Positions 18,502 through 64,000 of a stretch of 64,000 nt of DNA are shown here, one piece after another. Each line of letters starts with the position of its first letter. The first letter of the stretch is position 1. Below the pieces are notes generated by a model. That model was not told where the DNA came from. It searched no databases and worked only from the letters and a program-made list of their open reading frames with translations. Both the position numbers and the translations under genes were made by a program. The DNA comes from Escherichia phage vB_EcoM_Goslar, in the sequence record NC_048170.1. One strand, written 5' to 3'.

Positions 18502-18512
18502 GTTGTATTACC

Positions 18513-26002: not shown

Positions 26003-26893
26003 ATGCGTCCTGATAATACCCTACTCGGTGAACAGGGTGTTGGTGCTCTTAGCAACGCGGCTATGGTCGATATTCGTGCAGGTGCCCAAAACGGGTACAT
26101 CAGCAATATCGGTACGTACGTTGCTAACGCCAACTACATTCCGAACCAAATGTTCTGTCTCCTGCTGGAGGCACCACGTGGTTTCAACTATCTACCTAAC
26201 CCGGATGTACAGATTGGTTATCTGAAGGCGCTGGTAGAAGAGGTTGCGCATTCGATTACCGGTCTGCAACGCGGATTGGAAGTTGAATTCGTTAGCGTCC
26301 CGGTTTCTGGTTCCGGTGAAATCCAGGAAGAAGTTTCTGACGTTAAACGTCCTCGCTCTAACCCGACTTTCGGGATCTATGAGAAAGAAGGTCGTTCCGT
26401 TAGTTACTTCCTGGAACAATGGATCACGTATCTGTTGATGGATCCGGATGCCAAATATCCGATGTTGTCGTCTATCGTATCCACCGGTGGTCCAACCGAC
26501 CTGCTGGCGGATTATCGTAGCGCAACAATGCTGTTCGTTGAACCAGACCGTCAACACAAGAAAGTGGTTAACGCCTGGCTGTGCACGAACATGATGCCTC
26601 ACGGTACCGGTGACTGGACATCACGTCGTAACAAGAACGATGCGCCAAACGTGGTAGAATTGAGCATTCAGTTCACAGCGTTAACACAGACCAACTACGG
26701 TGTGCGTGCTTTTGCACAACGTCTGCTGGATAAGATGAACCTGCTCAAAGTGAACCCGGATTTCCGTCCGGCTTATCTGAGCGACATCGATCCTGCTGTG
26801 GCAGCGCAGAAGGTTGGCTATACCTTCGACTTTGATAACAACGATACCTTTGAGGTACCGAATACTTATCAAAACGTAACACCTCGCGTGTAA
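26003..26893 (+). CDS. probable tail tube protein
   Basis: 296 aa, 15 nt after the sheath-like gene, RBS GAGAGGAG. Confidence 0.4.
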   Translation: MRPDNTLLGEQGVGALSNAAMVDIRAGAQNGYISNIGTYVANANYIPNQMFCLLLEAPRGFNYLPNPDVQIGYLKALVEEVAHSITGLQRGLEVEFVSVPVSGSGEIQEEVSDVKRPRSNPTFGIYEKEGRSVSYFLEQWITYLLMDPDAKYPMLSSIVSTGGPTDLLADYRSATMLFVEPDRQHKKVVNAWLCTNMMPHGTGDWTSRRNKNDAPNVVELSIQFTALTQTNYGVRAFAQRLLDKMNLLKVNPDFRPAYLSDIDPAVAAQKVGYTFDFDNNDTFEVPNTYQNVTPRV

Positions 26894-26918
26894 CGTAAAA
26901 AAAAAAAAGCATATTAAC

Positions 26919-26958
26919 CTCCCTTCCTTCCCTAGCCGTCAAGGCCGGGGAAGGAAGG
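26919..26958. terminator. bidirectional terminator hairpin
   Basis: ccttccttccc...gggaaggaagg; T-rich on plus side, T12 run on minus side (26897-26908). Confidence 0.55.
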
Positions 26959-26970
26959 TTTATGGTTTAT

Positions 26971-27510
26971 TTACTGTTTGTTCGTGGCTTCACGAATGAA
27001 AATGACATCAGGATATTCTTGAGATTCAATGAATTCAGGATTACGATAACGACGAATATGACGCATCGTTGTACAAGCAAGTTTGTAAAGATGTTCCTCC
27101 TCACGTTGTGTTAATAACATCAGTTGCGCGTCTGGAATCACGAATGGGAGTCTTTCATTCACATATTCTCGAAGGTCATCGAGATCATCGTGATGAATGC
27201 CCTCTGAGAGCTTATATAACGCTTCCAGCAATTCTAATCCGCCGAACTGGTAACTTCCTATTGTCGTCGTAAACAATGCGCCAGAACGCGTGGTGGATGC
27301 TCTATCGGCGACATCGTATTGTTCTAACATATATCCGTAGACCATGCTACGTCGATCCAGTGTATCCGTAACGAGATTACGCCACCGTTCCAGTCTTTCG
27401 AGCGCTTTGTCGATAGAGTAAACGATCATGCCATGTTCATCCAACTCTTCCGCAATACCCAATAGTTCGTTGTTGTTAGGTTTTGCTGCACCGATAAGAA
27501 AAACACTCAT
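26971..27510 (-). CDS. hypothetical protein
   Basis: 179-aa ORF. Confidence 0.45.
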   Translation of the reverse strand: MSVFLIGAAKPNNNELLGIAEELDEHGMIVYSIDKALERLERWRNLVTDTLDRRSMVYGYMLEQYDVADRASTTRSGALFTTTIGSYQFGGLELLEALYKLSEGIHHDDLDDLREYVNERLPFVIPDAQLMLLTQREEEHLYKLACTTMRHIRRYRNPEFIESQEYPDVIFIREATNKQ

Positions 27511-27923: not shown

Positions 27924-28026
27924 AGCGCTAACCCCAAAGGATAAAAATAAAACCTTGACATAACCACCACCGTAGCCCTGTATGGGGCTACGGTGGGGTC
28001 ATACAGAGAGACGTGTTAAGTTACAA

Positions 28027-29442: not shown

Positions 29443-29531
29443 CTTTTTAAATTCCTACTTAACAATAAAGTTCATATACGGCGTATGTATCCGTAGAATA
29501 ATGGGTTCTGGTAAGATCTTACATCAAAATG

Positions 29532-29543
29532 ACGGCATAAAAA
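29532..29543 (-). promoter_or_regulatory. TTTTTATGCCGT box following hairpin
   Basis: minus strand: acctccttaccc-acat-gggtaaggaggt then ACTTTTTATGCCGTCA, about 90 nt upstream of ATG at 29442. Confidence 0.4.
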
Positions 29544-29725
29544 GTACCTCCTTACCCATGTGGGTAAGGAGGTTCGTCCATCACGACGAAAGGACGTTAT
29601 GTGACGCGGTGTCCATAACGGCCCTGGTAGCAGGCATTAAAGATAACAAAAAGGATGTAAGTTGAGCTAAACCACCTAAATACGGTAACGATTACTTCCG
29701 TACACAATATAACGCAACATCTTTT

Positions 29726-33916: not shown

Positions 33917-36900
33917 TTATTTGGCGTCGTTAAAATAAATATCAACAGCTCGTTCCGTTGCGTAGAGGAGACCAAGATTCACAGTCCCAACCACTTCCGG
34001 TGAACCGATGATACGGTTAGCGATACTGGTGCCACTGAAGATAGCATCAAGGGTGTGCCCGTCTTCGGTTTTGTTCACACCATGACCCACGGAAGAGACA
34101 ACGGATTTCGCTTGTGCTGCGAAGGTACCTTTATCACCCATCCCCGCACCAAGGTCGTAACGCATGAAAATACGGATGGCGATCTGGTTCTCGCCTAACG
34201 GATTACCGTCTATTCTTACGTTACTGTTGTTGATACGCCCCGTTGTTGCTTCGTTGAGTTTCAGTTCCTTAACGCGTTTAGCTCGTGCTTTATCCGCATC
34301 GCCGACGAGCGCTGCCATGGTTTCACTCATATCCTCAATCTGAGCGCGGTACAATACATCGATCTGTACAACTTCACCATGAACGTCAGCACGTGGGTTA
34401 TACTGACTCATACGCCGTAATGCTTCAACGGCTTCCTGACTCTCATCACTCAGATCGGTCGCAATCGGTTCTTCCAGTGTTGCAAGGATCGTTCGTGGTT
34501 CAACATGATCGCCGATTTTCACGAGACCACGAATGTTGAGATGGGCGTCAACGATGAGTGTACGACTCTTAATCGATGGTGTTACGAGACGATCGGCAAG
34601 ATTGTCGAAGATATACGAACTGTCCTCGTGCGTCTCTGGAATATCCAGAATACCGACAAGAGACAGAACACCTGCGCGCCAAACAACCTGACCTGGGTTC
34701 CACCAATCGCGTTTAAAATAAAGACGATGGAAAACCACCACATCCTGATCCTTAACGCGATCCCCGACTTTATAATCGGTAATGAGATCGTGAGGATAAT
34801 ACTTACCTGGTCCTTTCCCGATTATCGTGCCGAGTTGGAAAACCTCTTCTCCTAACTCTGGATCGTCGTATTGTATCGTAAGCGCAGTTTTGGTGACCTT
34901 CTTAACAACACCATCGCCTTGGGCAGCTGCTGCGAAGAGTTTACCAACACGATGCGCGATGACTGTCTCGCCACCCGTACGCCATGGTTGTACATCGTAA
35001 CCTTCAGCAGCAATCATGCGGTTGTGTTGGATTCCGACAAAAACCAGACGTTTTCCATCGTCACGGTCTACAGCCGGAACAGCTAACGCCGACGTACTCA
35101 TTACCGATGAGATACCATCTGTCTTTTCATCGAATGGTCGTGTTTCACCATACACCGACACGATATTAGCATTAGGTGCAAGGTAAGCAGAGATACCCAC
35201 ATCCCCACTATCTTTCGTACCCTCTGACACAATACCAACATCAGACTTGTCGTATTCACGATCGCGTGCGCGTCGAAGCGATGTCTTTGAACGACCTCCG
35301 ATACCGGTCATCGTTGCTTCTTCACCTTGCTTGATATCCAGCATTGGGTTGGTTTCATCAATGACGATAGAAGCACTGTCGTCAAGGATTTGGTTCCAAA
35401 CGCTCACCGGACTGATTGAGATCTTCTGTCGGTTGCCTTGGCTGCTGTTCTCATTCTGACGAATAGCGCCAACCAGGTCCTTATACACCAATTCAGCGAA
35501 CTTATCGTACGTTTTAAAACGTTGGTAGTTCACATCGTTCGTGTTAGGTGCCCAATCATCCAGAAGCAGTTCAACAGCACGCAGTAGCAACATGGCGAAA
35601 TCAGTAGGTTCTCCCATGTTCTGTAATAGCGTACGGCTTACCGGATCAACGAAAAGACGCTCCATGAGTTCAAGTTCGCGTAAATGGCGAACCTTAAGTC
35701 CAGCACCATCGACAACGTTAAAATAGATATCACGATTGTCAAAAGCGCCGCGAGCGTAACCGATGTAGTTACGGTACTCGTTAAACCCACCCAGCAACAA
35801 CGTCGTCATGCGATCGTCTTTACTGAAAATCAAACTTTCATCGTCAAAGCTCACCGCGAATTCATCTGCTGCTAACCCCATACGAGAACCACGAGGTACC
35901 GTACGATAGTTTGCTTTAAGATGTTCTAATAACGGGGTAAGTCCGCCCAGATAACTTAGAACAACGCCAACCGGAATACGTACACCCATGAATTCAAGAT
36001 CGGCGGCTTCGATCGGCATCTTAGCCGCATTGATACCGAAGAAATCAGGGAACGTCCCTACAGGTGTTGGTGTTTGTCCTGACTGACAGATATAGAGCTG
36101 ATTGCGTTCATCGATCGCTAGGAACTCACCCGATGTGTTACGTGCGAACGTCAGGAGTCCTTCGGCTAACTGTTCGTTGAACCGATCTTCCCCAATGAAC
36201 TCCGGCAATGTTTTTATATCGAGACGTATATCCCAATCAGCAAATTGGATTTGGGTATAGTTGCGTGCAAGCACAGCGAAGTAATACGGGACTTTGACAG
36301 CCGGATCAAAGACGTTACCACGTTTTAACGTTGTTAAGGGTGAGGACTTATCGTAATACATCGCCGTAAGTTGACGTGTTAGCCAACGACCGGCGTTATT
36401 AACGACGCGCTCTGAACGTTTAACAAACACCTTACCGTAGGCGGTACTTAATGCAACTTCGGATGATGATACCTTTCTAATAGGTTTATCAACACGTTGT
36501 TTACGCATCCGGTACTTGATGCCGTTAACAACATAAATGCCATCCTTACGAACCTTCGGCAACATCACCGGGAACGTGGTTGGGACACCGCCTACAGGGG
36601 CCAGTTTAATCGTGATGACTTGATAATCCCCCATCACGTCAACAACATCTTCGACTTTATATCCCGTAACAGGGTAACCTGCTTGCTGTACCGCAACAAC
36701 GGCAGCTGCGATGTCCTTTTGCATTACATGCTCAACGTAATGTTTATCCCACACCGCAAGCGTCGATTTACATAGGCTCTTATCGACGATAACATCCGCT
36801 TCCGGCATAACCTTTGCGGGAGCTAATTTTGCGGCTTTTGGTTTAACTTCAACATACTCGGCAAGCGTGAGTCCAGAACCGTCGGGCGCTTCGATTTCAT

Positions 36901-38263
36901 GAATAGCGTCGGCATTACGCATCGCTGCTTTATATTGGACGCCGCTTAACTGACCCGCATCCGCCAGATCGCTCGCGCGCACCAACACCGCATCCGATAA
37001 CGACTGAATATATTCACCGTGCGTTTTTGGTAACGTTGCCGCGTCAAAGACATCAACCTTTTCTTCTTCGGTATCGTCGGTAACGACTTCGAAGAGATCG
37101 TCGGTAATGTCCTGATCTTCATCGGGTTGGAAATCTGGTTGTACTTCTACCCCGGGTACTTCACGGACATCTTCGAACGCGCGTTCTACAATGGCGTTCC
37201 ACGCATCAGCGTCATCGTCTTCATCCGACCCACCGACCAACTCCGCTTCTAACTCGTCGGGGTCAAGAACAGTGGCCAGATCCTCCCCGTTAGGAAGCAT
37301 GACGTCACGATCATCGTACTCCGCATCCGGGCTGTCCGCAAGAATATCTCGCTCTTGACGAAGAACCTGTTCCTCTTCTTGTTTCTGTTCTTCTTCATTC
37401 GCACTCTGCGACCACAGACGTGTTACCGCCATCATCCAACGACGCTGGAAGGTTTCAAGTGTCGTTTTATCGAGTTCTTCCCCTTCCTTTACAAGTCCGG
37501 TACGCCATTCTTCCAGTAGACCAAGATTCAGCGTAAAGAAGTACACACCGTCTGTAAATACAACGTTAAGCTTATCCAGCGTGGCTCTGTCTAACGAAGC
37601 CATCGTGCTGTTCTCACGATCGACGCCCAGCCAGCGGAAGAAGTCAAAGAACGACAGCTCCTCCGGCGTGGCGAAATTCATGAGGTTGTTACGGGTCGGT
37701 GCCTGTTGCGTGGTACGCATCAACGAAATCTTCGGCAATGTTGACGGTATACGGAACAACAAAAAGTGTTGACGATCGCTTTGCTGTGCGATTTCGTTGG
37801 CTTTCGACCAAATTGTTTTACGCACGTTGAACCATTCATCATACCAACGGGTGAGCGTTGGACGATAGATGTACATGTGGTTAAGATGTGCGTAGTTAGC
37901 AACGATCTGAGCGTTGATGTTTTTCTCCACCGTACTTAGATCGGTAACCAAACGAAAACGACGATGCGATGCACGATAATCCAATTTCGCTCGTGGAAGT
38001 TGGAATCGTTGATCGCGTCGAGGTGCACCCTGTTTGGTTGCGAGATCATCAGCAAACGAAATCCATAGTTGAGCACTTTCTTTACTCAGCATGTATTCGT
38101 TTTCTGGAGGACCTATCAATGAAGGATCCGTTGCGGTGTAATGATAGACAGCATAACGCGGCAGCTGCAATAGCTGCACTAAACGTAATCTCGGTGACAA
38201 TAGCTCTTGGTAGCGTCTGACACCAAACTGTCGGTAGTAATCAAGGTATTTAAGTTTTGCCAT
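33917..38263 (-). CDS. multisubunit RNA polymerase beta-like subunit
   Basis: NPMLDIKQGEEATMTGIGGRSKTSLRRARD...SEGTKDSGDVGISAYLAPNANI resembles beta NPLSEITHKRR..GPGGLTRERAG..ETPEGPNIGLI; GDKGTF...GHGVNKTEDGHTLDAIFSGTSI resembles GDKMAGRHGNKGV block; RBS GGAG. Confidence 0.55.
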   Translation of the reverse strand: MAKLKYLDYYRQFGVRRYQELLSPRLRLVQLLQLPRYAVYHYTATDPSLIGPPENEYMLSKESAQLWISFADDLATKQGAPRRDQRFQLPRAKLDYRASHRRFRLVTDLSTVEKNINAQIVANYAHLNHMYIYRPTLTRWYDEWFNVRKTIWSKANEIAQQSDRQHFLLFRIPSTLPKISLMRTTQQAPTRNNLMNFATPEELSFFDFFRWLGVDRENSTMASLDRATLDKLNVVFTDGVYFFTLNLGLLEEWRTGLVKEGEELDKTTLETFQRRWMMAVTRLWSQSANEEEQKQEEEQVLRQERDILADSPDAEYDDRDVMLPNGEDLATVLDPDELEAELVGGSDEDDDADAWNAIVERAFEDVREVPGVEVQPDFQPDEDQDITDDLFEVVTDDTEEEKVDVFDAATLPKTHGEYIQSLSDAVLVRASDLADAGQLSGVQYKAAMRNADAIHEIEAPDGSGLTLAEYVEVKPKAAKLAPAKVMPEADVIVDKSLCKSTLAVWDKHYVEHVMQKDIAAAVVAVQQAGYPVTGYKVEDVVDVMGDYQVITIKLAPVGGVPTTFPVMLPKVRKDGIYVVNGIKYRMRKQRVDKPIRKVSSSEVALSTAYGKVFVKRSERVVNNAGRWLTRQLTAMYYDKSSPLTTLKRGNVFDPAVKVPYYFAVLARNYTQIQFADWDIRLDIKTLPEFIGEDRFNEQLAEGLLTFARNTSGEFLAIDERNQLYICQSGQTPTPVGTFPDFFGINAAKMPIEAADLEFMGVRIPVGVVLSYLGGLTPLLEHLKANYRTVPRGSRMGLAADEFAVSFDDESLIFSKDDRMTTLLLGGFNEYRNYIGYARGAFDNRDIYFNVVDGAGLKVRHLRELELMERLFVDPVSRTLLQNMGEPTDFAMLLLRAVELLLDDWAPNTNDVNYQRFKTYDKFAELVYKDLVGAIRQNENSSQGNRQKISISPVSVWNQILDDSASIVIDETNPMLDIKQGEEATMTGIGGRSKTSLRRARDREYDKSDVGIVSEGTKDSGDVGISAYLAPNANIVSVYGETRPFDEKTDGISSVMSTSALAVPAVDRDDGKRLVFVGIQHNRMIAAEGYDVQPWRTGGETVIAHRVGKLFAAAAQGDGVVKKVTKTALTIQYDDPELGEEVFQLGTIIGKGPGKYYPHDLITDYKVGDRVKDQDVVVFHRLYFKRDWWNPGQVVWRAGVLSLVGILDIPETHEDSSYIFDNLADRLVTPSIKSRTLIVDAHLNIRGLVKIGDHVEPRTILATLEEPIATDLSDESQEAVEALRRMSQYNPRADVHGEVVQIDVLYRAQIEDMSETMAALVGDADKARAKRVKELKLNEATTGRINNSNVRIDGNPLGENQIAIRIFMRYDLGAGMGDKGTFAAQAKSVVSSVGHGVNKTEDGHTLDAIFSGTSIANRIIGSPEVVGTVNLGLLYATERAVDIYFNDAK

Positions 38264-41957: not shown

Positions 41958-42202
41958 GGAGACACTCCTCTTTACCACCACCGGCTGCGGCGGTATCATC
42001 TGAACACACGAGAGACGTAATGGGTGATGGCGTCACCCATCGCTTCCTTGCTTGAGGCGAGGAAGTTATTAGGTTACGTACCTGCGTGATAAAATCAAGC
42101 AGGCGATGTGTGAAGTTACGCTTCAACATTATCAATGCCGAAGGTAAACTTCGTGCATCACGTTCCAACGTAACATGGGAACGTATCGAACTGGAGGTAT
42201 AC

Positions 42203-45200
42203 ATGGTAGATAAAACCCGTGTTGAGGGTGATGATAATTGGGATAACTGGGATGAAGACTTCTCCCTGGATCTCGATTTTAACGAACCCAAAGACGATCG
42301 TAAACCGATAACACGCTTTGCGATAGGAGCGGTTAAAGGTGCTGCTGAGGATCTTACTTCCTACGAAAGAATGAAGGAGATCGCCAGAAACGCATTGCCT
42401 AAGGGCTACAGCGACGGTATGGATCTTATCGATTCCGCCGTCGGATCCACGAAGGAACTATACAATGAAGCCGTTCGTGACGTTCTTCCTAAGGTCCAAA
42501 GCTCAAAACGGTTAGCAGCACAACTGACCAAGAAATACCGTGCGAGCATGCCCGATTTCTCGAAGAAAATTCTTGAGCAATGGGAGCGAGAAGCCAAGGA
42601 AGAAGACGAACGTAAACAAGCTGAAGAAGCCCTTCGTCAACGCATGGCGAGCGCGGGGGACGATGAGATCGCCCGCAAGGTTGCCGAGGCATTAGGCGAA
42701 TCAGCAAACCAAAGCGCGGATCAGTTTGCTGAACAGCAAGCGAAAGAAAGTATCCGTGACGATATCGCTGACAAACGGTACGCTGTAACCAACAAACAAA
42801 TGAGTGCGATGCAAGAAGGCGTCGCCAAGATGGTTGGTTTCAACAATGAATTCGCTGCACGCTACATGCGTAAAAGCCTGGAACTGAAATATCGTTCCTT
42901 AGCGATTCAACGTGCAAGTTTCGATCAGCATAAAAAGTTAGCCGAAGTCTATATCGGTCTATTACAAAACATCCAGAAGAATACGGCTTTACCTGATGCA
43001 GCTAAAGCGAAGATGTCGGAAGAATTCCGTCGTAGTGCATACCAACGTTTCTTTGGTAATGCGTTAGATGCGATGGGTTCTTTCGAGAACCGTTTCTTTG
43101 CCGATGTTAAGAAGAACCTCGCCACCAACGCATTAGGTGCTTTAAAAGGCGTCGTGTCTGGCGCAAACGATGCGTTATACGGTTTAAACGAAGCACGTGA
43201 CTCGATGTCCATGATGGACGGGATGGGGTCAGAAGGCGATATTAAGGAAATGCAAGGAAGGATGTTGGGTCAGTTCATTGGCTCAACTGTCGCGCCGTGG
43301 ATGGCTAATAAAGGCAGGATGGCGTTACGCGATTTAGCAAAACGTCACCCCAATGCTAAATTCGCAGGTGCGTTAAAAGCCGTGGATCAAGGTGGTGAGG
43401 CTGCCGCTTACACGACGCGTAATCTCGGTAAACTGCTCCAGGAAGATATTCGTAAGAACGAATTCAATCTTAGCGATCCATTTTACAAGCAATTGTTACG
43501 CGGCGCAGGGCGTTGGGCGTTCAACATGGACAGCGGACGTAACTTCCGTGTGATGAACGACACCGCTGAAACACTGGCAGAGCAAACATCTTTCGACGGT
43601 TTAACCTACCGCAGCATCAACGAGGTTATTCCGGGCTTTCTTGCACGCATTCTGAAAAGCAGTGAGGGTATCCGCACCGGAAACAGCGATCCTGACTACG
43701 AGGTCTATGACGGCATCAGCGGGCAATTCGTGGCTCAGCGCACGCGCGAACAAAGCGTCAACGACACGCTGTTTAACAAACGTTCGTTTGGTTATTACGC
43801 AAGCCGTTTCAATGAGGTTATCTCGGTCATCGATCCCGATAAACAATTATCGGAAAAAGCCAGAAAGGCGCTGGCCAAGCAGTTGGCACGAGATAGCGAC
43901 GCAAACATTGCATTCGACCCAGCTCGTTTTACGGATGAAAGCAACTTCGATCGTAGTATCGACCGTGACGCTATTAAGGAACTTTCCACATACTTTCGAG
44001 ACCGTTACGGTATTCGTGATGATGTCAACGATAAGGGCGAACGTCATCAGGTCATTGGAAACCGCGGGCAATATTACACGGAACGTAACCGAGCTGACCT
44101 TCGCTACGGAAATCTGAAATCGTTACAACCGGATATTCAGCGTAACCTTAACCTACTGAAACGTACTGGTGACGTCCAATATCTGGAACGTATCGGTATC
44201 GTAACGAGAAATAGCGACGGAAGCTACTCAGTTAATCACGATCGGTATTTCTCTGAAATCGATCGATACATCGACCGACCGGAGTACGCTGACCGCGGCG
44301 ATGTTAATACGCGATTAACCGCTCAGGAAACAAGAGCGCTGGCGTTGGGTTATCGTGACGCAAAACCATCAACTGGTGACGTCCAAAATGCGGGTCTGCC
44401 GAACATCGATCGTAAGGCTGCTGGAACAGTAACCGTTGATGAAAACATCGGCTACGATAAATGGTGGAACGACGCTGGCGTTATCACTACATCGCTTGAA
44501 GAACAGAATCGAGCATGGCAAGAACTCTATCTCGAAGCGTTATCTGAAGCATCCGAACAACGTGTCGAAATGCTTGCGTTGCTGAAAGCCATTTCTGAGA
44601 AAGACTGGTCTAATAACGTTTCGCTGGATGGTGAAGACGTACCTGAAGGTGCAGCGCCCATTTCATTTATCGATCGCGCCAAACAAAAACTCGGCGGACG
44701 CAACCTCTTTAAAGGTGGCCGTAATCTCCTCTGGAAAGGAATTAAAAATACCGCACGATTGGGTGTTAAAGGCGCACGTTGGGGTGCAGAACGTACATTA
44801 GGTAGTTTGGTAAATTCCGGCCGACGTATTATCAATTTCAACCGTTTTGTGTTCGGCGCATTATCCAAGGTCGATCAGGTTCCGTTTGACATTTACGTTA
44901 AAGGGGAATCCCAACCACGCATACTGGCTGCCAAACTTCGTCAGGGGTTATACTTCGACGAGGCGACAGGAAAAGCCGTAAAACGGATGAAGGATATCAA
45001 AGGCCCACTCGTTGATGCGGATGGAAACGTCGTAATCAGCAACGAGGATATCGAGAAAGGGCTGGTCACTCGCGCTGGTCGTGCCTTTGAGAATTCAGGA
45101 CTTAAGGCGTGGGCGCATGAAGGTCTTAATGGAATAACGACGGTATTAAGTCTGCCACGGATGTTAAAACGCGGTGCGGTTGAGATCTACAAACAGCTTG

Positions 45201-48200
45201 ACAGAACACCCGACGTTTACGTCAAGGGAGAATCAACGCCTCGTCTATTATCCATGGTGTTAGCAGCGGGTGGGTATTTCCGTCGCTCTGATGGGCAAGT
45301 CATCAAAAATCTTGAAGACATCGATGGTGATGTTGTTGATGCACAAGGTAACGTCGTACTTACGCTTGCCGACATGCAGAAAGGACTTGTCGATAAATAC
45401 GGTAAAGCGATTCGTCGCTTAAAAGAAAAGCTCATCAACTTCGGTGTGAAAGCTTTCACGTTACCGTTAACCTTACTACGCAAGACAAAGGACATCCTTA
45501 AAGCCCTTCCAGGTAAAACCGTTAACGGTCTACGACGGATGGGATTAAATTTCCAATCACCTGACGCATTACTGGTGGGAACAACGTCGAGCATGGTAGA
45601 TCGGCTCGATGCGATTTACCAGCTTCTTGACCAGCGTATGCCGGGTGGTGATAAGGATTACCGCGATTGGGATGGCGATGGTGTTCGAGAAGGATCGTTG
45701 GAAGACCTGAAACGTAAACGTGCAGCCAAGGAAAACGGTGAGGATGACGCAGGCAAAGATTCCAATAAAGGGGAAGAAAAGGAGAAGAAACGAGGATTAC
45801 TCGGAAGCCTTTTCGATATGCTCGGCGATACCGCATTAGGTAAACGCCTCATGGCGAGTCCGCTTGGAAAAATTCTAGGTGGTCTTGGGGCGGTGTTAAG
45901 CGGCGGTGCATCGTTAACCGGGTTGTTGGGCAAAGGTCTCATTAGAGGAACCGGTGCACTGGTCAAGGGAGGACTAAGTGCGGCAGGATGGTTAGGACGT
46001 GGTGCGTTAATGGCGGGCGGGGCCGCATTGAACGCCGTTGGTGGGTTATCGGGATTAGGTGCATTCCTCATCTCACCTGTTGGGCTTGCTATCGCTGGCG
46101 GCGCATTGGCTGCTTATGCTGGATGGAAGATCTATCAGCATTTCGCCGAGAAGCCTGACCCGATGCAGAAGCTCCGTCTTATCGCATACGGTGTAAAAGG
46201 TGACGATAAAGACTTCAATAAGAAGCTGCTTGCGACAGAAACATACCTCACCGACCATGTGGTTATGACCGGGGATACCATCGGATTCGATCCGAAAGCC
46301 GATTCTGAAAAGATTCTCGAAATCTGGGAATTGTCCCTGGAAGATTCCGACCGAATGAACGAATGGAAACGTTGGTATCTACATCGTTTTATTCCTGTTT
46401 TCGCTCGTGCGTACAAACTCTGGAAAGAGCATATGCCGGACGAGAAGAAATACATGGAAATGGATAAATATCCAAACGGTGAGAACAAAGTGAAATGGTC
46501 GGAAGCGTTTATCTGGCCTTCCGATAGTCCTGATGGTCCGTATTACGTCGAAGCTAACCCGTTGGGTTCTTCTGGTGCGACGCGTTATATTGCTGGTCAA
46601 GACGTCAAAACCTTGATGCTGAAACAACTCGAAGCCATCAAGAAAGAGTACCAGAATCAGATTAAGCAATACTCTCATGATGAGGCTATTGCTGATTGGT
46701 CACGGATGTCTGACACACAACGTAAATCCGTTGCGCCTAACGCATTACGCGGTCAGAAAGCGTCGTTACGTTTTAACGATAAACGTTACAACAGTGCTGG
46801 CGCTAAAGGACGACAGAAACTGGATGCAACCGCGGTTATTGAAAGCGTAGACCGCCGCGGCAGGAAATGGGTTGCCGGTGGATACATCGATGAACTCACC
46901 AGTCTCCGTGTTCGCGCGTACGGTATCAAGGTTCCGTTGTTAAGCCAGATAAAAGTGCTGATGGAACTTGAAGACGCTGTAGAACCTGGCGTTGTCGCTG
47001 AAGGTAAAGGTGTTAAATACGGTGGCGATCTTGTCGCGCTCTACAAGAAATTCGCGACGAAGTTCGGAAGAGACGTTAACAGCAAGCATGATCAGGATAT
47101 CTGGTTTGCTTGGATGAATAACCGTTTCCTGCCCGTCTTTTTAACCTATTACCAACAAGTTAGCGAAATGGGCGGTCAAGGACTTCTGTCCGACGTGGTA
47201 CAGAACCTGAAAGACAGCCAGCGTTGGGAAATCGGTGAAGCACTTGTCGCAACGCAATACCGTGATGAGAAAGGTGCATTACAGCCTGTATGGTCGTGGA
47301 ACAGTTGTGGTTTCTCCGGTACTGAAGCTAACACCACCAGCAGTTCAACAAAGAGCCAACTCGATCTGTTAAAAGAATATGCGGATAAAGAGAAGGTTCG
47401 TGAGAAGAACGCGGAAGCATCGCAAGAGGATACCGATAAATTATCGAAGATCCAAGAGCTGATGATGAAGCAGGCTGGGTACGAGAAGAAAGACGGTGTC
47501 TGGCAGAAGAAATCTCGCATTACTGGTGGGATGAGTAACTCCGAAGCGAATTACAACCCCAATGGGAATAAGGTCGGTGCAAGCAGCTTTACTGCTTCGG
47601 CTACTTCCAATGCGGGATTGGGATCAACCGGCGATCTTACTGGATTGCCTAACATGGGCTTACAGAAACCGGCAACGGGACCGGGTCCTGAAGCTGGACG
47701 TCGTGCGCTTGTTAAATCCGCTGTAAAACGCGGTATTACCGATCCAATGGAAATGGCGATGTTCCTTGCGAACATCGAACATGAATCGGGGAACTACACT
47801 CACGTACGTGAGGGGAACTATAAGACACCTGAGCGTCTTAAACAGGTCTTCCCTTACAAATTCCGTGATGTGCAGGATGCCGCACAGACGATCAGCATGG
47901 GGCCGGAAGCGGTATTCGAACGTGTGTATGGTAATCGTAAAGACCTAGGAAACACACAGAAAGGAGACGGGGCGAAGTATTTAGGACGTGGATTCATTCA
48001 GGTTACCGGTAAAGCTAACTACGCTCGTCTGTCTAAGACCTTGAATAAGGATCTTGTCAGCGATCCGACATACCTGGAAACGCCGGAAGGTGCAGCGGAA
48101 GGTAGTGTTGCATGGTGGCTCAACCGAGGTAACGTATTACGCGATCCCGCAAAACGGGGTGACGTGCGCCAAGTTCGTTATCTGGTTAATGGTGGCTATA

Positions 48201-48868
48201 ACGGATTACGTGATGTTGAACAACGTTCTGCATATTGGATTCAGGCGGCTAAGAATGGCACCCTGAAGAAAATGATGGACGAGTTATCAGGGTCAACATC
48301 AGACGATCAAGCTGAAGGACCGACCACTGCCGAACAGGTGAAGAACGAAGCAGCACAAGAGGCAAACGGAACACCAGCTGTAAGCAACGATCCGCAAGCC
48401 CCAGTATCTTCTACTACCCCTGAAGCTAAACCGTCTGCAGCTGCCGGGACGGCCCCAGCACCTGGAGAAGCATCACCAACGCCTGGAAGTTTCGAAACAG
48501 CAAAAGCCGCGGCAGGACAACCGACATCAACTCCAGCACCTAGCGATTTGCCGTCAAACCCGGGCGCAAATCGAGGGATATCGGTTCCGAATACGCCTGC
48601 ACAGGTTGCACAGTCTGCGACACAAACGTCGGCTGCAAGTGAGAACTTCTACGGTAGCGCAGGTGAAATTCTCCGACAGCAGCTGACCACGCAGCAGAAC
48701 ATCGAGAAGAACACCGGTAGAACGAATGAACTTATTTCGGAATTAATCCAAGCCGTTAAGGGTTCTTCTATCGGTAAGGGTTCTGCAGGTCCTTCTCAAC
48801 AACAGACGATGTCGCTACCTAATCGTCCGCAAGGAATCTCTCCAACACGGACAAGGTACGCACAGTAG
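42203..48868 (+). CDS. giant virion-associated protein with GH19-type lysozyme domain
   Basis: start MVDKTRVE with RBS GGAGG; FLANIEHESGNY...YLGRGFIQVTGKANY lysozyme/chitinase-like block; Gly-rich hydrophobic segment GGLGAVLSGGASLTGLLG...AIAGGALAAYAGW. Confidence 0.6.
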   Translation: MVDKTRVEGDDNWDNWDEDFSLDLDFNEPKDDRKPITRFAIGAVKGAAEDLTSYERMKEIARNALPKGYSDGMDLIDSAVGSTKELYNEAVRDVLPKVQSSKRLAAQLTKKYRASMPDFSKKILEQWEREAKEEDERKQAEEALRQRMASAGDDEIARKVAEALGESANQSADQFAEQQAKESIRDDIADKRYAVTNKQMSAMQEGVAKMVGFNNEFAARYMRKSLELKYRSLAIQRASFDQHKKLAEVYIGLLQNIQKNTALPDAAKAKMSEEFRRSAYQRFFGNALDAMGSFENRFFADVKKNLATNALGALKGVVSGANDALYGLNEARDSMSMMDGMGSEGDIKEMQGRMLGQFIGSTVAPWMANKGRMALRDLAKRHPNAKFAGALKAVDQGGEAAAYTTRNLGKLLQEDIRKNEFNLSDPFYKQLLRGAGRWAFNMDSGRNFRVMNDTAETLAEQTSFDGLTYRSINEVIPGFLARILKSSEGIRTGNSDPDYEVYDGISGQFVAQRTREQSVNDTLFNKRSFGYYASRFNEVISVIDPDKQLSEKARKALAKQLARDSDANIAFDPARFTDESNFDRSIDRDAIKELSTYFRDRYGIRDDVNDKGERHQVIGNRGQYYTERNRADLRYGNLKSLQPDIQRNLNLLKRTGDVQYLERIGIVTRNSDGSYSVNHDRYFSEIDRYIDRPEYADRGDVNTRLTAQETRALALGYRDAKPSTGDVQNAGLPNIDRKAAGTVTVDENIGYDKWWNDAGVITTSLEEQNRAWQELYLEALSEASEQRVEMLALLKAISEKDWSNNVSLDGEDVPEGAAPISFIDRAKQKLGGRNLFKGGRNLLWKGIKNTARLGVKGARWGAERTLGSLVNSGRRIINFNRFVFGALSKVDQVPFDIYVKGESQPRILAAKLRQGLYFDEATGKAVKRMKDIKGPLVDADGNVVISNEDIEKGLVTRAGRAFENSGLKAWAHEGLNGITTVLSLPRMLKRGAVEIYKQLDRTPDVYVKGESTPRLLSMVLAAGGYFRRSDGQVIKNLEDIDGDVVDAQGNVVLTLADMQKGLVDKYGKAIRRLKEKLINFGVKAFTLPLTLLRKTKDILKALPGKTVNGLRRMGLNFQSPDALLVGTTSSMVDRLDAIYQLLDQRMPGGDKDYRDWDGDGVREGSLEDLKRKRAAKENGEDDAGKDSNKGEEKEKKRGLLGSLFDMLGDTALGKRLMASPLGKILGGLGAVLSGGASLTGLLGKGLIRGTGALVKGGLSAAGWLGRGALMAGGAALNAVGGLSGLGAFLISPVGLAIAGGALAAYAGWKIYQHFAEKPDPMQKLRLIAYGVKGDDKDFNKKLLATETYLTDHVVMTGDTIGFDPKADSEKILEIWELSLEDSDRMNEWKRWYLHRFIPVFARAYKLWKEHMPDEKKYMEMDKYPNGENKVKWSEAFIWPSDSPDGPYYVEANPLGSSGATRYIAGQDVKTLMLKQLEAIKKEYQNQIKQYSHDEAIADWSRMSDTQRKSVAPNALRGQKASLRFNDKRYNSAGAKGRQKLDATAVIESVDRRGRKWVAGGYIDELTSLRVRAYGIKVPLLSQIKVLMELEDAVEPGVVAEGKGVKYGGDLVALYKKFATKFGRDVNSKHDQDIWFAWMNNRFLPVFLTYYQQVSEMGGQGLLSDVVQNLKDSQRWEIGEALVATQYRDEKGALQPVWSWNSCGFSGTEANTTSSSTKSQLDLLKEYADKEKVREKNAEASQEDTDKLSKIQELMMKQAGYEKKDGVWQKKSRITGGMSNSEANYNPNGNKVGASSFTASATSNAGLGSTGDLTGLPNMGLQKPATGPGPEAGRRALVKSAVKRGITDPMEMAMFLANIEHESGNYTHVREGNYKTPERLKQVFPYKFRDVQDAAQTISMGPEAVFERVYGNRKDLGNTQKGDGAKYLGRGFIQVTGKANYARLSKTLNKDLVSDPTYLETPEGAAEGSVAWWLNRGNVLRDPAKRGDVRQVRYLVNGGYNGLRDVEQRSAYWIQAAKNGTLKKMMDELSGSTSDDQAEGPTTAEQVKNEAAQEANGTPAVSNDPQAPVSSTTPEAKPSAAAGTAPAPGEASPTPGSFETAKAAAGQPTSTPAPSDLPSNPGANRGISVPNTPAQVAQSATQTSAASENFYGSAGEILRQQLTTQQNIEKNTGRTNELISELIQAVKGSSIGKGSAGPSQQQTMSLPNRPQGISPTRTRYAQ

Positions 48869-52182: not shown

Positions 52183-52210
52183 CACGTCCTCCTGAAAAAG
52201 AAAAAAGAAA

Positions 52211-52220
52211 TACGGCATAA
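52211..52220 (-). promoter_or_regulatory. TTTATGCCGT box following hairpin
   Basis: minus strand agcctacccac-cattgt-gtgggtaggct then TTTATGCCGTAT, 29 nt upstream of ATG at 52182. Confidence 0.45.
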
Positions 52221-52264
52221 AGCCTACCCACACAATGGTGGGTAGGCTAAGATCAACATCGATG

Positions 52265-53289: not shown

Positions 53290-53422
53290 GGCATCACCTA
53301 TGTATCATTCTTGCAGGCATCAATGAAGCCATCACAAGAAGGTAACGTTATACGTCGCCTTCATGACAGTCATCATGAAGGTAATATAGTCCTGTTATTT
53401 TTTTCAATACGGAGAATGTAAA

Positions 53423-58450: not shown

Positions 58451-59293
58451 ATGCATAAATTTACCATTCCTGAAGACCCGATTACACTGCAGACCCTTTG
58501 GGATTCACATCGTGCTTTATCAATGGAAGGCTTTGCGCAAGACTTCGCTTCACTTACCGCAGTAACGAACCTTCGTAGTATGTTTACTAACGGTAAGAAG
58601 TTCGTTACCGATTGGCTTAAGAAACGTGATGTGACGGTTTATCCTAAAGTCTTCGATGACCTCGATACCATCTTTAGCAACAACGCTTACAGCGATCTCA
58701 TTGGGTATCGCGCTTTTATTCCGAATGGTTTAAATGCGCCGATGTCAGATTATGTTGTCGCTTTAACCCAGAGTCTGGATAGCGTAATTGGCACCATCCT
58801 ACCCGATTTGGATAAGTTGACCGTAACGTGCGCTAAAGCCGTCAACGACGTTAACTTCCGTCGTAGTAGTGGTATGGCTCAAACACTACCTAAAAACGAT
58901 CCAGAGAACGTTCTAGAGACGTTACGTGCGATGTTCAAACAAGGGACGGTAACACAGACCACTGTAGGCCGTGCATATAAGAACGAAGATGATATTCGTC
59001 AGATCGGAAAAGATCTGGATGCTTCCCGTATCCGTGCGCTTGACGTTAATCCTAAAGACGTGAAGAAGGCAATCGAACGTTTCATGGAGGTAGCTGACCG
59101 TTTAACCGAAATCCTGGTTCAAGACTACAACGAAGGTGCGGTGAGTAACGCAATGATTCGCGATATTAGCGACGCTATCTACCAAACAGCCAAACAGGCT
59201 GAGCTGTATGCGTTTCTCGTGAACGCTTTGGCTGAGGCGATCATCGCATATAACGACACTTGGGACGCTGTTAAAAAGAACGCGAAAAAATAA
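58451..59293 (+). CDS. hypothetical protein
   Basis: 280-aa ORF. Confidence 0.5.
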   Translation: MHKFTIPEDPITLQTLWDSHRALSMEGFAQDFASLTAVTNLRSMFTNGKKFVTDWLKKRDVTVYPKVFDDLDTIFSNNAYSDLIGYRAFIPNGLNAPMSDYVVALTQSLDSVIGTILPDLDKLTVTCAKAVNDVNFRRSSGMAQTLPKNDPENVLETLRAMFKQGTVTQTTVGRAYKNEDDIRQIGKDLDASRIRALDVNPKDVKKAIERFMEVADRLTEILVQDYNEGAVSNAMIRDISDAIYQTAKQAELYAFLVNALAEAIIAYNDTWDAVKKNAKK

Positions 59294-59779: not shown

Positions 59780-61318
59780 TTACTCCAACACATAACGTGG
59801 GTTACTGTATATGTTAGCCCATATACCAACGTCGTCTCCTGATTCGATAATCACAGCGAAACGAAACGCAACATCAGATTCACGATAAGTTACCGCGTAC
59901 GCTTTCGTTTCTGGCGATGCTAAATAGCTCAAGTTCAGACGTTGAGGTAGGTCTAACCCCAAGGACATGGTACAAGACGTAACGCCCTGCTTATCGGGGG
60001 TCAGTCTGTAATTCACGTCCACCTTCAAGCTTTTCGTAACCTGCGTAATCGCACTATGCACTTTGGTAACCGTTTTGCCTTTCTTATCCTTTTCTGTTTC
60101 GAAAAGAACGTCGGTAATTTCGGTTACAACCAGGCGCGGTGTGGATTCGCGGTTAGCATCCAGCCATTCATCCAGCAACGTCTTTAAGAAGTTCAAGGAA
60201 TCAATCGCGCGCCAAGCAAGGTTAGGTGGATTGCACGCTTCCATTAGAATGGCTGTGTTGGATCCACCTAGCGGAAGATGCACGCTCTTACCGAGGCCCG
60301 TCGGACGCATCGTAAGATCGCACTCGCCCTCAAGAATATCGCGATGATACTGACGATGATGAAGGTTATCCGTGTATGCGATATACACTGACTCCGTTGT
60401 CCCATGCTCTAATACCCGAGATGCATGCGTACGCATAATCTCAACAGCATCATCCGGCTTGCTTAAATAGATAACACTGTACGCACTATCGCTAATCCTT
60501 TTCCCTAACTCAAGACGTCCCTTGTTGTCTTTATCAGTGTTACCACCGAAATAGATGTAGCGGCCATCTTTCGCACGCTCTTGCTGCTGGTTGGTGGTAA
60601 AGTAGCAGCGTGAGAACGTAAAGAACGGGCTTATTTCCGGTTCGGGGCTCCAATACCCCTTAGCCGGAAGTTCGCGGCGTATTTGGGTTCTTACAGCCCA
60701 GTCCTGGTTTTGTGACAGATATGTTCCACGCGTTGCCAGCATATCCGCACGTTCGTTACCAACATTGCCCTCATGTCCAGGAACGTAGCGCAGCGAAATA
60801 TCGATAGCGTCGCGCTTCGCATCCCTTATCGCGCTATCGAGTTTCCGCCACCGTTCCGCATTCATTAACGGTTTATTGTCGGATTTAACCCAGTTGTTCT
60901 CTCGCCAGTTAGCAAGATGGTTGGTGGCACCTACAACAACATATTGGCTGTCCGACAACAGCTGGATCCGTTTTGCCCCCTTTGCTTTTCCAAGTTCAAT
61001 CGCACGTATTGCAGCATCCAACTCAGCCTGATTGTTCGTTACGTTGAAACCCAAAGCCTCTAACTCATCCACGTATTCCTTGGGTTCGACCAGCACAGCG
61101 TCTTTAGGAAAGTCGAGTTTAGGGTCAACATAACCGTATTGCGTTGGTTTGGGCTTCCCACTTTTTGAGGGTTCCAAGGTGCCTTTTATTTCTTTCACCA
61201 TATCGTAGGTGTAGCCGTGCACGCCGTAGCCACCATACCCACTCGATGTTGGACGGGATCCTCCATCACAGTAGAAAACGGCACCGAGCTCAGTATTTCC
61301 TGCCATTGTAAACCTCAT
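59780..61318 (-). CDS. RNase H-domain protein with C-terminal extension
   Basis: N-terminal FYCDGGS...NNQAELDAAIRAIE...LLSDSQYVV...NW...GHEGNVGNERADMLA matches RNase HI catalytic blocks. Confidence 0.7.
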   Translation of the reverse strand: MRFTMAGNTELGAVFYCDGGSRPTSSGYGGYGVHGYTYDMVKEIKGTLEPSKSGKPKPTQYGYVDPKLDFPKDAVLVEPKEYVDELEALGFNVTNNQAELDAAIRAIELGKAKGAKRIQLLSDSQYVVVGATNHLANWRENNWVKSDNKPLMNAERWRKLDSAIRDAKRDAIDISLRYVPGHEGNVGNERADMLATRGTYLSQNQDWAVRTQIRRELPAKGYWSPEPEISPFFTFSRCYFTTNQQQERAKDGRYIYFGGNTDKDNKGRLELGKRISDSAYSVIYLSKPDDAVEIMRTHASRVLEHGTTESVYIAYTDNLHHRQYHRDILEGECDLTMRPTGLGKSVHLPLGGSNTAILMEACNPPNLAWRAIDSLNFLKTLLDEWLDANRESTPRLVVTEITDVLFETEKDKKGKTVTKVHSAITQVTKSLKVDVNYRLTPDKQGVTSCTMSLGLDLPQRLNLSYLASPETKAYAVTYRESDVAFRFAVIIESGDDVGIWANIYSNPRYVLE

Positions 61319-61356
61319 TAATCATTGTCCGTATGATAGCCCAAAGTTGTACGGTA

Positions 61357-61908
61357 TTACCGATTACCGTCGGTTGACGTTGGTTGATCGCGATCGACTT
61401 TCATTGACCGCAGTTTTCCGCCGTTAATTACACATTGATTGCGCTGTTTGGCGGAGGTCAGACTATTACAGACGTAATAGGTATCGATAAAACGTTCAAC
61501 GCGTTCTTGAAACTCCCTCTCGTCAACTTTCTCTTTTTCAAAAGTTCGTAACGCCCGATCAACCTCACCCTGGAGAATCCGGTTCTGTTCAACCATACTG
61601 TCGATTAAACGGCCTCGTACTTCGTTCGATGTGTAAAGTTGACGAATCAGTTCTCGGTTGGTGTCTCGCGCATAACGCAATGTTGCATTTTCCTGACGTA
61701 AACTACTCACGTCAGCCATCAAGGTAATGATTTTTTCGCCAGCGAATAACGTCACGATACCCAATACGATGAAAAAGCCCGTAATCAAGAATATCGAGGA
61801 CTGTCGAGCTCCATCTCGACGATAGCGTGTGGGCGGTCGCTTACTTCGCCGAAACAACTCGCGAAGAAAAGGGAAAAGCCAGGGCAACGCCTTGAGTGTA
61901 GTAAACAT
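61357..61908 (-). CDS. membrane protein with N-terminal TM helix and coiled coil (spanin-like topology)
   Basis: start MFTTLKAL with RBS AAGGA; hydrophobic SSIFLITGFFIVLGIVTLFAG then heptad-like charged region. Confidence 0.35.
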   Translation of the reverse strand: MFTTLKALPWLFPFLRELFRRSKRPPTRYRRDGARQSSIFLITGFFIVLGIVTLFAGEKIITLMADVSSLRQENATLRYARDTNRELIRQLYTSNEVRGRLIDSMVEQNRILQGEVDRALRTFEKEKVDEREFQERVERFIDTYYVCNSLTSAKQRNQCVINGGKLRSMKVDRDQPTSTDGNR

Positions 61909-61962
61909 GCGTGTGTCCTTGATAGTATGAAATTTCCAATACAACTTAACCGAGGACGTCGA

Positions 61963-63303
61963 ATGATTAGTATTTTTGGTTTTTATACGTACAAAGGGTA
62001 CGCTAATAACCACCCAAAAACCACGGCGAAATTCGGTGAGTTCAGTCAGCACAGTGCTACGTTCAGTCGCGAAATCGGCATCTATACCAACACGGCGTAC
62101 GCACGTACGACCTTATTAGTGTTGAATGCCGAAAACGAAGCTGGTGAAGCACAAACGCTGAATGACGACACCGCAGGCCGCATTCTTCAGGTTGGTCAAT
62201 GGTTGCTGGAAAAAGCCGCATCGGGCGAAATCCAGGAAGACCGAGACCAAGTTATCGATTACCTAAAAGACGACTTCACAACGTATCTGGATTCTATCGA
62301 CATCCCAACACCCACCACCGATGGCACAGTCTATCTACCAGCGTGGATCAGTTTCAAGATAACGGCCACCGGCGATGTTGTCAAGATTTGGTTGTCTGAT
62401 AGCGTATTCCAAAGTCAATATCCAAAATACGAATATGAAGTCGTTCCCCCTGTTCCTAAGGATCAGTTAGATACCTTCTTCGAAGATCTGGCAACATTGA
62501 AGAAACTGGTTGACAGTCGAAGCAGCGAGAAACTGACCGAAGAAATCAACGAGGTGCGCGACCAATTCCCAGACACACAATTGTGGACGAAAACCTATAA
62601 AGCGTACGATTACACCGACGATTCGAAATACATTAATACCGATTGGACGGTGATTATCTACGGTGCAGCAGGTAACAACATTGATAATATCAAGGAGTTC
62701 CTGCAAAACTGGATTCTTAGCAATAGCACGCACGGACGTCCAGACTGGGAAATCGTTCTGCCGGATCTTTTTATTCCGACGGAACACATCTTCATCCCGA
62801 TCTGGAACCGCCACAGTGCTCCAGAAATGACCAATCAGGCACGTATTTATAGTCCTATCTTCGATGATTCGTTGATGGATACCTACCTGAAAAACTTTGC
62901 TGATGGTTACGGCGAAACCGCCGAAGTCCGTAAGTCGCTTCAAGCGGTGCCGACGTTGTGGCGCTCGATCGGTTTCTTAAGTGTCGGTAACTCACGTAAC
63001 CGAGACGGTAAACTTAAGTTCTACGATCGTTGGCCACAATACGCGCTCATCAGCACAACCAGCATCGACATTAACCGTATCGACGATGCGACACGTGAAT
63101 TCATCACGTTCACTTACGAAATGCTGAAACTGGCAGAATCGCTCACCGAAGACGACCCGGTACCGTTGGGTTATAGTCGTGTTACGCGTGGTAGCAATAG
63201 CTTCTTAGCGAAAAGCCACAACGATGTTCAGTATCTCTTCTTAACAAAAGAAGCGTTCCTGAAGAAAATGCCGGATGAAGCCGACACGCCTGTTGGAGGT
63301 TGA
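61963..63303 (+). CDS. hypothetical protein
   Basis: start MISIFGFY with RBS GAGGA. Confidence 0.5.
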   Translation: MISIFGFYTYKGYANNHPKTTAKFGEFSQHSATFSREIGIYTNTAYARTTLLVLNAENEAGEAQTLNDDTAGRILQVGQWLLEKAASGEIQEDRDQVIDYLKDDFTTYLDSIDIPTPTTDGTVYLPAWISFKITATGDVVKIWLSDSVFQSQYPKYEYEVVPPVPKDQLDTFFEDLATLKKLVDSRSSEKLTEEINEVRDQFPDTQLWTKTYKAYDYTDDSKYINTDWTVIIYGAAGNNIDNIKEFLQNWILSNSTHGRPDWEIVLPDLFIPTEHIFIPIWNRHSAPEMTNQARIYSPIFDDSLMDTYLKNFADGYGETAEVRKSLQAVPTLWRSIGFLSVGNSRNRDGKLKFYDRWPQYALISTTSIDINRIDDATREFITFTYEMLKLAESLTEDDPVPLGYSRVTRGSNSFLAKSHNDVQYLFLTKEAFLKKMPDEADTPVGG

Positions 63304-63305
63304 TT

Positions 63306-63932
63306 ATGGCTGTAACACGCATGACGCCAAGTCCCGGTGCGGTCGGGGTATTCACAGTATCAGCGCCGTTTTCCGTTGGTACGTCAACGCTATATACCGT
63401 TACAGCGTTACGCCGATTCAGCGAAGTCATCGGTAGTGGAATCGATCTATTTACGGAACTGTACGAACCGTTATCAATAGACAAATCCACTTTCGAAGCG
63501 CATCTCGAAGCGAATGCTTATCTCGTCACGTTGCAACCGGATTATGGTGCGCCCGTACTGGTACCCGATACGTATATCACGTCGTACCCAAAGAACGATT
63601 CCTTGCGGTATCGTCGCATTATTCTGGGTATCGATTTCGGGCCTCTTCCTCCCGGTCTTGACCTTTCGTATTTAACAACGATATTGAAAGGTAAGGCTAG
63701 TGATATTCTTGGTGTCGAACCTGAAGTTAAAACGATGGAAATCACTCTCGATGATACCGTTACTCAGGAACAACATCAGATAAACGAAGCCCGTCGTCAG
63801 GCTGCGATAAAAGAACGAGATACCATTTACGCACGCTGTGAAACGCAAGAGAAGCAGATAACGGCTTTACTTGCAACCCAAAAGCAACTTATCAAATTGC
63901 TTCAAGACGCCGGTATCAATCCGACACCTTAA
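63306..63932 (+). CDS. hypothetical protein
   Basis: start MAVTRMTP with RBS GGAGG, 2 nt after upstream stop. Confidence 0.5.
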   Translation: MAVTRMTPSPGAVGVFTVSAPFSVGTSTLYTVTALRRFSEVIGSGIDLFTELYEPLSIDKSTFEAHLEANAYLVTLQPDYGAPVLVPDTYITSYPKNDSLRYRRIILGIDFGPLPPGLDLSYLTTILKGKASDILGVEPEVKTMEITLDDTVTQEQHQINEARRQAAIKERDTIYARCETQEKQITALLATQKQLIKLLQDAGINPTP

Positions 63933-63938
63933 CATATT

Positions 63939-63980
63939 CCCTCCTCCTTCCCTGATGGGTTGGAGGAGGGTTATGCCGTC
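63939..63980 (+). promoter_or_regulatory. hairpin followed by TTATGCCGTC box
   Basis: ccctcctcc-ttccc-tgat-gggtt-ggaggaggg then TTATGCCGTCAAGC then A16. Confidence 0.4.
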
Positions 63981-64000
63981 AAGCAAAAAAAAAAAAAAAA

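Follow-up and report, generated by a model that had tools for sequence, protein, structure and literature searches.

The run of sixteen adenines (A16) that closes the window (the whole stretch of DNA analysed, 64,000 nt) is a genuine, conserved homopolymer of unstable length; it is likely to be located between the back-to-back terminators of two convergent genes and to form a place at which assemblies break. It is very probably to be classed as a slippage-prone homopolymer of convergent terminators coinciding with an assembly break, i.e. as an element of known kind in an undescribed phage clade. In the proposed arrangement, hairpin 1 and TTATGCCGTC would form on the plus strand a phiKZ-type terminator module for the DUF7194/gp161 gene; on the minus strand, hairpin 2, a spacer of 4–9 nt and the T-run as U-tract would form an intrinsic terminator for a gene of 233 aa. 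The value of the result is mainly practical: the end of the window proves not to be a genome terminus, and the downstream sequence can be predicted.

The window is, by its sequence, part of a phiKZ-like jumbo phage. Pfam and PHROG matches were obtained for tail sheath, tail tube, a split RNA-polymerase beta-like subunit, DUF7193 and DUF7194, and further for terminase, an RNase H-like nuclease and a UvsX-like recombinase (Table). The last gene, DUF7194, was assigned the start ATG 63306 and not TTG 63300 (start codon and Shine–Dalgarno context); its exact product is present on a Logan contig, and phiKZ gp161 is named as its homologue in a PhiPA3 annotation note. No match to the last 2 kb of the window was obtained with megablast or blastn in a phage collection of 50,697 records, nor with megablast in complete E. 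coli genomes; the best protein identity in tblastn against cultured phages was 38%. Identical or near-identical proteins were found in contigs of 236–248 kb, in metagenomes as well as in isolate assemblies of E. coli, Salmonella and Shigella (P0008, P0011, P0028–P0041). Since neither the phage collection nor the complete E. coli genomes contained a nucleotide match, the clade seems to be an uncultured or undeposited group of enterobacterial jumbo phages. The ORF at 42086–48868 (2260 aa) matches a phiKZ-type 'tail fiber' PHROG in its N-terminal part and is endolysin/lysozyme-like in its C-terminal part (residues ≈1875–2100); its product is presumably a virion-associated peptidoglycan hydrolase.

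Table: Positions of the homopolymers, terminator elements and genes of the window (+, −: strand; a point stands for either strand).
Feature	Position	Strand	Basis or remark
A16 homopolymer (T16 on minus strand)	63985–64000	.	putative minus-strand U-tract; length-hypervariable; probable contig break
A12 homopolymer (T12 on minus strand)	26897–26908	.	between tail tube stop codon and shared terminator hairpin
Hairpin 1: stem CCCTCCTCC / GGAGGAGGG, 14-nt loop	63939–63970	+	sequence; hairpin scan; folds; conserved in 30 relatives
TTATGCCGTC, 3' half of phiKZ-type conserved terminator motif	63971–63980	+	matches published motif; recurs after window hairpins
Module copy: hairpin + TTATGCCGTC, then CTTCTTTTTT	3221–3263	−	
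Module copy: hairpin + TTATGCCGTG	7269–7302	−	12 nt upstream of gene start
Module copy: hairpin + TTTTTATGCCGTC	29531–29575	−	
Module copy: hairpin + TTATGCCGTA, then TTTCTTTTTTCTTTTTC	52211–52248	−	
Shared hairpin of tail tube gene (+) and convergent 179-aa ORF, 26971–27510 (−)	26922–26958	.	folds; scan on both strands; relatives
phiKZ-type tail sheath gene	23915–25987		Pfam phiKZ_gp29PR; PHROG tail sheath; precedes tail tube gene
Tail tube gene	26003–26893	+	Pfam Phage_TTP_14 E = 8.9e-113; PHROG virion protein
Split RNA-polymerase beta-like subunit	33917–38263		Pfam/PHROG
DUF7194 gene, phiKZ gp161 homologue, last in window	63306–63932	+	Pfam PF23824 E = 2.6e-67; PHROG 3241

Both homopolymers, A16 at 63985–64000 and A12 at 26897–26908, are present exactly where the initial annotation had put them, and A16 does follow the hairpin + TTATGCCGTC module as described there: hairpin 63939–63970, TTATGCCGTC 63971–63980, 4 nt, A16. 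The rarity of long A/T homopolymers, claimed at the same time, was borne out by counting. A-runs of 1, 2, 3, 4, 5 and 6 nt occur 8217, 2852, 711, 198, 37 and 8 times in the whole window, i.e. the counts drop geometrically to length 6 (8 cases); there are none of 7–11 nt, one of 12 and one of 16 nt. The sole remaining run of at least 7 nt besides A12 and A16 is T7 at 53398–53404, which makes three in all. The numbers expected in the window are far below one: 0.012 (iid) to 0.033 (first-order Markov) for A/T runs of at least 12 nt, and 6e-5 (iid) to 2.4e-4 (first-order Markov) for runs of at least 16 nt. Homopolymers of at least 7 nt are under-represented across the window (3 observed vs. 9–15 expected from composition). 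Given the rarity of A16 and A12 against expectation and this depletion, the two long runs are not due to chance. A coding or frameshift role of A16 and A12 was rejected; both are located past stop codons and outside ORFs.

The window ends in the order CCCTCCTCC-TTCCCTGATGGGTT-GGAGGAGGG-TTATGCCGTC-AAGC-A16, in which CCCTCCTCC and GGAGGAGGG are the arms of a 9-bp GC-rich stem and TTCCCTGATGGGTT is the loop; in relatives, the region homologous to hairpin 1 folds with z = −7 to −8. The motif 5'-BCCYCCCCHWWDGGGRRGGBYTTATKYYGT-3' was described in 61 mapped phiKZ terminators (Putzeys et al. 2024, Microlife, PMC10914365), and 201phi2-1 has a similar motif A (PMC11512511). GTTATGCCGT at 63970–63979, directly after the stem, fits YTTATKYYGT, and the stem fits the CCYCC...GGRGG type required of the phiKZ-type terminator module. 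By position and motif, hairpin 1 is assigned as the terminator hairpin of the DUF7194 gene. Four other copies of hairpin + TTATGCCGT (Table), together with more hairpin + TATG sites, were found within 64 kb. The likeness to the phiKZ terminators consists of a stem-loop of the CCYCC/GGRGG type followed immediately by TTATGCCGT, of an intergenic location past gene 3' ends in many copies per genome, and of paired or bidirectional sites between convergent genes. The differences are a loop of about 4 nt there vs. 14 nt here and the long A/T homopolymer, which adjoins the module here and is absent from the published motif; moreover, phiKZ is only distantly related (gp161, at most 38% amino acid identity), and its terminators were mapped by RNA 3' ends, those proposed here being predicted from sequence. 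The hairpin + TTATKYYGT terminator motif of phiKZ would thereby be extended to a distant clade.

T-rich stretches, e.g. CTTCTTTTTT and TTTCTTTTTTCTTTTTC, are often located 3' of the hairpin + TTATGCCGT modules (minus strand; 3211–3220, 52194–52210, 59270–59290 and 27935–27955), which hints at a distal U-rich part of the terminator module in this clade, absent from the published phiKZ motif. Intergenic hairpins flanked by TATG on both strands, i.e. symmetrical modules, were observed at 18460–18517, 26910–26964 and 63933–63975; with TATG on both sides of the hairpins, terminator and late-promoter start motifs coincide in both directions.

The sequence past the A-run was taken from 30 relatives covering the site, gathered via homologues of DUF7194 and of the 233-aa gene. 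All 30 share one layout: stop codon, CATATT, hairpin 1, TTATGC(C/T)GTCAAGC, A(n), (G/T AAA)(T/C)GATA, hairpin 2 and the 233-aa gene. The A-run, 9–26 nt long, has almost invariant flanks, and the spacer between the convergent genes DUF7194/gp161 (+) and 233-aa (−) amounts to roughly 110 nt. The Logan contig L001 matches window 60828–63940 at 100% identity and stops in hairpin 1. An exact search with a 34-mer gave nothing in viral_contigs and genome_contigs and matched one metagenome contig, L002 (90.5% identity), which reads through: CAAGCC-A9-GAAATGATA, a second hairpin (GTCACGA...TCGTGAC) and the convergent 233-aa gene. In the closest read-through relative, L024 (97.5% identical to window 61806–64000), A16 is followed by CGATAGTCAC and hairpin 2; A16, then G, C or T, ...GATAGTCAC and hairpin 2 were found in L020, L024 and L033. 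Ordinary sequence thus follows the run in these relatives, and A16 is probably the full tract. The sequence predicted beyond position 64000 is (G/C/T)(AAA)TGATAGTCAC, i.e. GATAGTCAC..., followed by hairpin 2 and the 233-aa gene. The alternative of ordinary sequence continuing after a short A-run, which the initial annotation had named as refuting its reading, applies in one part only: relatives do show such sequence past the site, but the great length of the run is genuine.

Lengths of the A-run (n, number of assemblies): 9, 1; 10, 1; 11, 4; 12, 7; 13, 5; 14, 1; 15, 2; 16, 3 (plus the window); 19, 3 (L014 and L028 being one scaffold); 20, 1; 21, 1; 26, 1. L014 and L016 were aligned over 3554 nt with 0 mismatches, the sole difference being a 2-nt gap (A19 vs. 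A21); L020 and L021 were aligned over 1979 nt, again with 0 mismatches and a 2-nt gap as the sole difference (A16 vs. A14); L014 and L015 differ by 3 substitutions and by 1 nt in run length. In these alignments the A-run is the fastest-changing position of the region, and the slippage-prone nature claimed for the tract agrees with both the range of 9–26 A and the near-identical contigs that differ only there; the length differences may reflect real slippage, read or assembly error, or both. Neither homopolymer has a length that can be relied on in short-read assemblies or that is suited as a strain marker. One lineage (L014/L028, L015, L016, L018, L036, L037) carries an insertion in hairpin 1, which results in a hairpin within a hairpin: CCCTCCTCC-TTCCCTTGCA-TCCTCCC-TTCCCTTACGGGTT-GGGAGGA-TGG-GGAGGAGGG (homologous to window 63948–63961); the longest A-runs (19–26 nt) were also observed in this lineage.

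At the second site, the tail tube stop codon is located 3 nt before A12, and the hairpin begins 9 nt after it. This hairpin has a 12-bp GC-rich stem and an inner 3-bp stem (two folds, z = −4.6 each). On the plus strand it is followed by TTTATGG (26959–26965; UUUAUGGUUUAUUUA, TTTATGGTTTATTTA), and on the minus strand by GAGGTTAATATGC, then T12 (order: hairpin, TATGC, T12). The initial annotation had assigned A12 to the U-tract side of a terminator working in both directions; the layout (A12, 9 nt, hairpin, UUUAUGGUUUAUUUA) makes this plausible, but the fit is loose: the GC-rich core stem lies 13 nt from the run and would be extended up to it only by a weak outer AU helix (predicted fold), and a simple terminator scan gave no call at this site. 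In relatives the homologous run measures 9, 9, 9, 10, 10, 11, 11, 11, 11 and 12 nt, and across eleven sequences including the window it spans 9–12 nt; the hairpin is conserved, with its loop in either orientation. In a more distant lineage (78% identical tail tube) two hairpins take the place of the single one, with TTATGCCGTC and an A-rich spacer between them, and this two-hairpin layout after the tail tube gene is the layout found at the window end. A search for related loci in genome_contigs with the tail tube protein gave nothing. From its layout, A12 is judged to be the same kind of element as A16, placed on a single shared hairpin.

A canonical intrinsic (Rho-independent) terminator consists of a GC-rich hairpin and a 3' U-tract; bidirectional ones have, in addition, an upstream A-tract. 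Hairpin 2, which was seen in relatives only, being located beyond the window, starts about 10 nt past the stop codon of the 233-aa gene. Of its 17 pairs, those of the core are intact throughout and one has undergone a compensatory GC↔AU change; the loop is tolerated in both orientations. The T-run starts 4–9 nt 3' of hairpin 2, the spacer being AUCG, UAUCA or UAUCAUUUC and only partly U-rich. The T-runs of A16 and A12 are most likely the U-tracts of minus-strand terminators, a reading drawn from this layout. As in canonical intrinsic and bidirectional terminators, a GC-rich hairpin is located past a stop codon and the T-run is 3' of it on the transcribed strand; as in the bidirectional ones, the opposite strand carries an A-run and the genes form a convergent pair. 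In the canonical terminators, however, the U-tract is 0–2 nt distant from the stem and usually 7–9 nt long, whereas the perfect T-run here is 4–13 nt distant and 9–26 nt long; transcription here is presumably carried out by multisubunit RNA polymerases of the phage itself, unlike that at canonical bacterial terminators. Nine uridines would be enough for a terminator, so lengths of 16–26 nt are left unexplained by function. The complete intergenic region of L024 matched no family in an Rfam scan.

The A-tract might instead be a neutral, slippage-prone spacer between two terminator hairpins that are self-sufficient, conserved in position only and with no role in termination. Such a spacer would agree with a length of 9–26 nt under no visible constraint, with the distance of 4–9 nt between hairpin 2 and the T-run, with a simple hairpin + T-tract scan that called no terminator at the window-end site, and with the definition of phiKZ-type terminators by hairpin + TTAT and not by a long U-tract (PMC10914365). 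A neutral homopolymer should, on the other hand, decay by substitution in some lineage, whereas a run of at least 9 nt is kept in 30 of the 30 relatives, including lineages in which the neighbouring protein is only about 65% identical; moreover, a hairpin followed by a T-run is also the layout of the A12 site and of other modules. On balance this reading is unlikely, though it is the strongest competitor of the U-tract.

Less probable again is a role of the A-tract as a regulatory element of a TATG-type late promoter, with transcription starting at the G of TTATGCCGTC and passing through A16, an A-rich leader or antisense RNA to the convergent gene, and expression tuned by length (contingency locus or transcriptional slippage). 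TTATGCCGTC indeed includes TATG, the start motif of phiKZ late promoters, and TATG with the start at G is the core of the late promoter of the phiKZ nvRNAP (PMC4666361); the motif is exact here and conserved in relatives, the tract is hypervariable between near-identical genomes, and the minus strand of the A12 site also reads TATG-C-T12. TATG alone is, however, insufficient for promoter activity (PMC4666361), and the motif itself has been described for terminators (PMC10914365); in relatives no plus-strand gene follows but only the antisense of the 233-aa gene, and the run is outside ORFs, does not separate promoter elements and changes in length without an obvious switch-like effect. A scan for sigma-70 promoters at both homopolymer sites found nothing relevant. 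A sigma-70 promoter on the minus strand, made up of the T-run as UP element plus TTGACG, was rejected for lack of a −10 hexamer at the right spacing.

What the tract has in common with contingency loci (Neisseria, Haemophilus, Campylobacter and some phages) is a long run of one nucleotide that takes different lengths in near-clonal genomes (here L014/L016 and L020/L021). In those loci the run occupies an ORF or the spacer from −35 to −10, whereas here it lies between two convergent terminators; no ORF passes through it and no sigma-70-like promoter spans it. From this position no on/off switch is expected from changes in length. It is at best a slim prospect that in this clade rapid change in length (9–26 nt) and flip-flop inversion of the adjacent terminator hairpins act together as a tuning element in place of a passive U-tract; for convergent late genes they might modulate read-through or antisense transcription starting at TATG, and heterogeneity of expression at the population level would then follow.

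A contig end at A16, one of the possibilities named in the initial annotation, agrees with independent assemblies that end in or at the same tract: L012 (NCBI contig, 236,859 bp) begins exactly with A13-TGATA, L017 begins within the A-run, and L036 (scaffold of 244,438 bp, plus 6 similar) ends with CAAGC-A26-TGGAAGACCC. The last 10 nt of L036, TGGAAGACCC, have no match at the homologous place in relatives and are probably a spurious contig-end extension. Scaffolds of the L015 type (244,468 bp) end in hairpin 1. For chance alone to place the window end at the final base of its longest homopolymer, the odds are about 1 in 64,000; from this coincidence and the analogous contig ends, position 64000 is taken to be the end of the source contig, and with several other contigs ending in or at the tract it is almost certainly an assembly break. 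Differing run lengths among reads would fork the assembly graph exactly past the last common A, and in a circularly permuted genome of about 240 kb the graph would be cut at its weakest point, the tract. This would account for the tract being the shared end of the window and of several ≈240-kb contigs of the clade. As in homopolymer-associated breaks of short-read assemblies, contigs of several assemblers end at or inside the run, and, as in homopolymer-associated indel errors, run length is the sole difference between otherwise identical contigs; the effect is an ordinary one of assembly, of note only because a circularly permuted genome, about 240 kb in size, seems to break preferentially at this tract.

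As a packaging site or physical end of the genome (cos, pac or boundary of a terminal repeat), at which contigs would stop for a biological reason, the A-run is hardly credible. The window, L012, L017 and the 244-kb scaffolds of the L036 type do all end in the same intergenic region, and homologues bear the locus tags _000001 and _00005; but the site is internal in contigs of 83–248 kb: L025 (237,533 bp), L024 (182,865 bp), L014/L028 (244,431 bp), L032 (237,753 bp), L033 (247,917 bp) and L005 (83,449 bp). A genome terminus is thus discarded, as a site internal in such contigs is no fixed physical terminus. Besides, L013, a Logan contig that matches L012 at 100% identity over 2534 nt, continues through A13 into hairpin 1, and phiKZ-like phages package by the headful mechanism with circular permutation. 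Equally little credit is due to a technical artefact (poly-A tail, adapter remnant or spurious extension at the contig end) absent from the phage. The initial annotation had raised an assembly or poly-A artefact; A16 does stand at the very end of the window, and the A26 + TGGAAGACCC end of L036 looks like a spurious extension, but the homologous run is internal with identical flanks in 30 independent assemblies, and exactly A16, followed by ordinary sequence, is found in the closest relatives L024, L020 and L033.

Close relatives differ in the orientation of the loops of their terminator hairpins: TTCCCTGATGGGTT vs. AACCCATCAGGGAA, AATGAA vs. TTCATT, and TAGCCGTCAAGGCCG vs. CGGCCTTGATGGCTA. 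The loops concerned are those at window 63948–63961 and 26934–26946, in hairpin 1 of L019 and L029, in hairpin 2 of L010, L024 and L030, in the A12-site hairpin of L023, L040–L042 and L045, and in the inner nested hairpin of L037. Whole terminator hairpins have been flipped repeatedly with the flanks unchanged, which suggests recombination or template switching between the inverted arms.

Logan contigs (k = 31) often stop inside terminator hairpins and not in homopolymers. At the window-end site seven of them end in hairpin 1 (L001, at window 63940, L003, L013, L016, L019, L020 and L021) and others read through; L045–L047 end at the A12-site hairpin. These stops could be caused by a drop of coverage at GC-rich hairpins or by mixed hairpin orientations in the sample.
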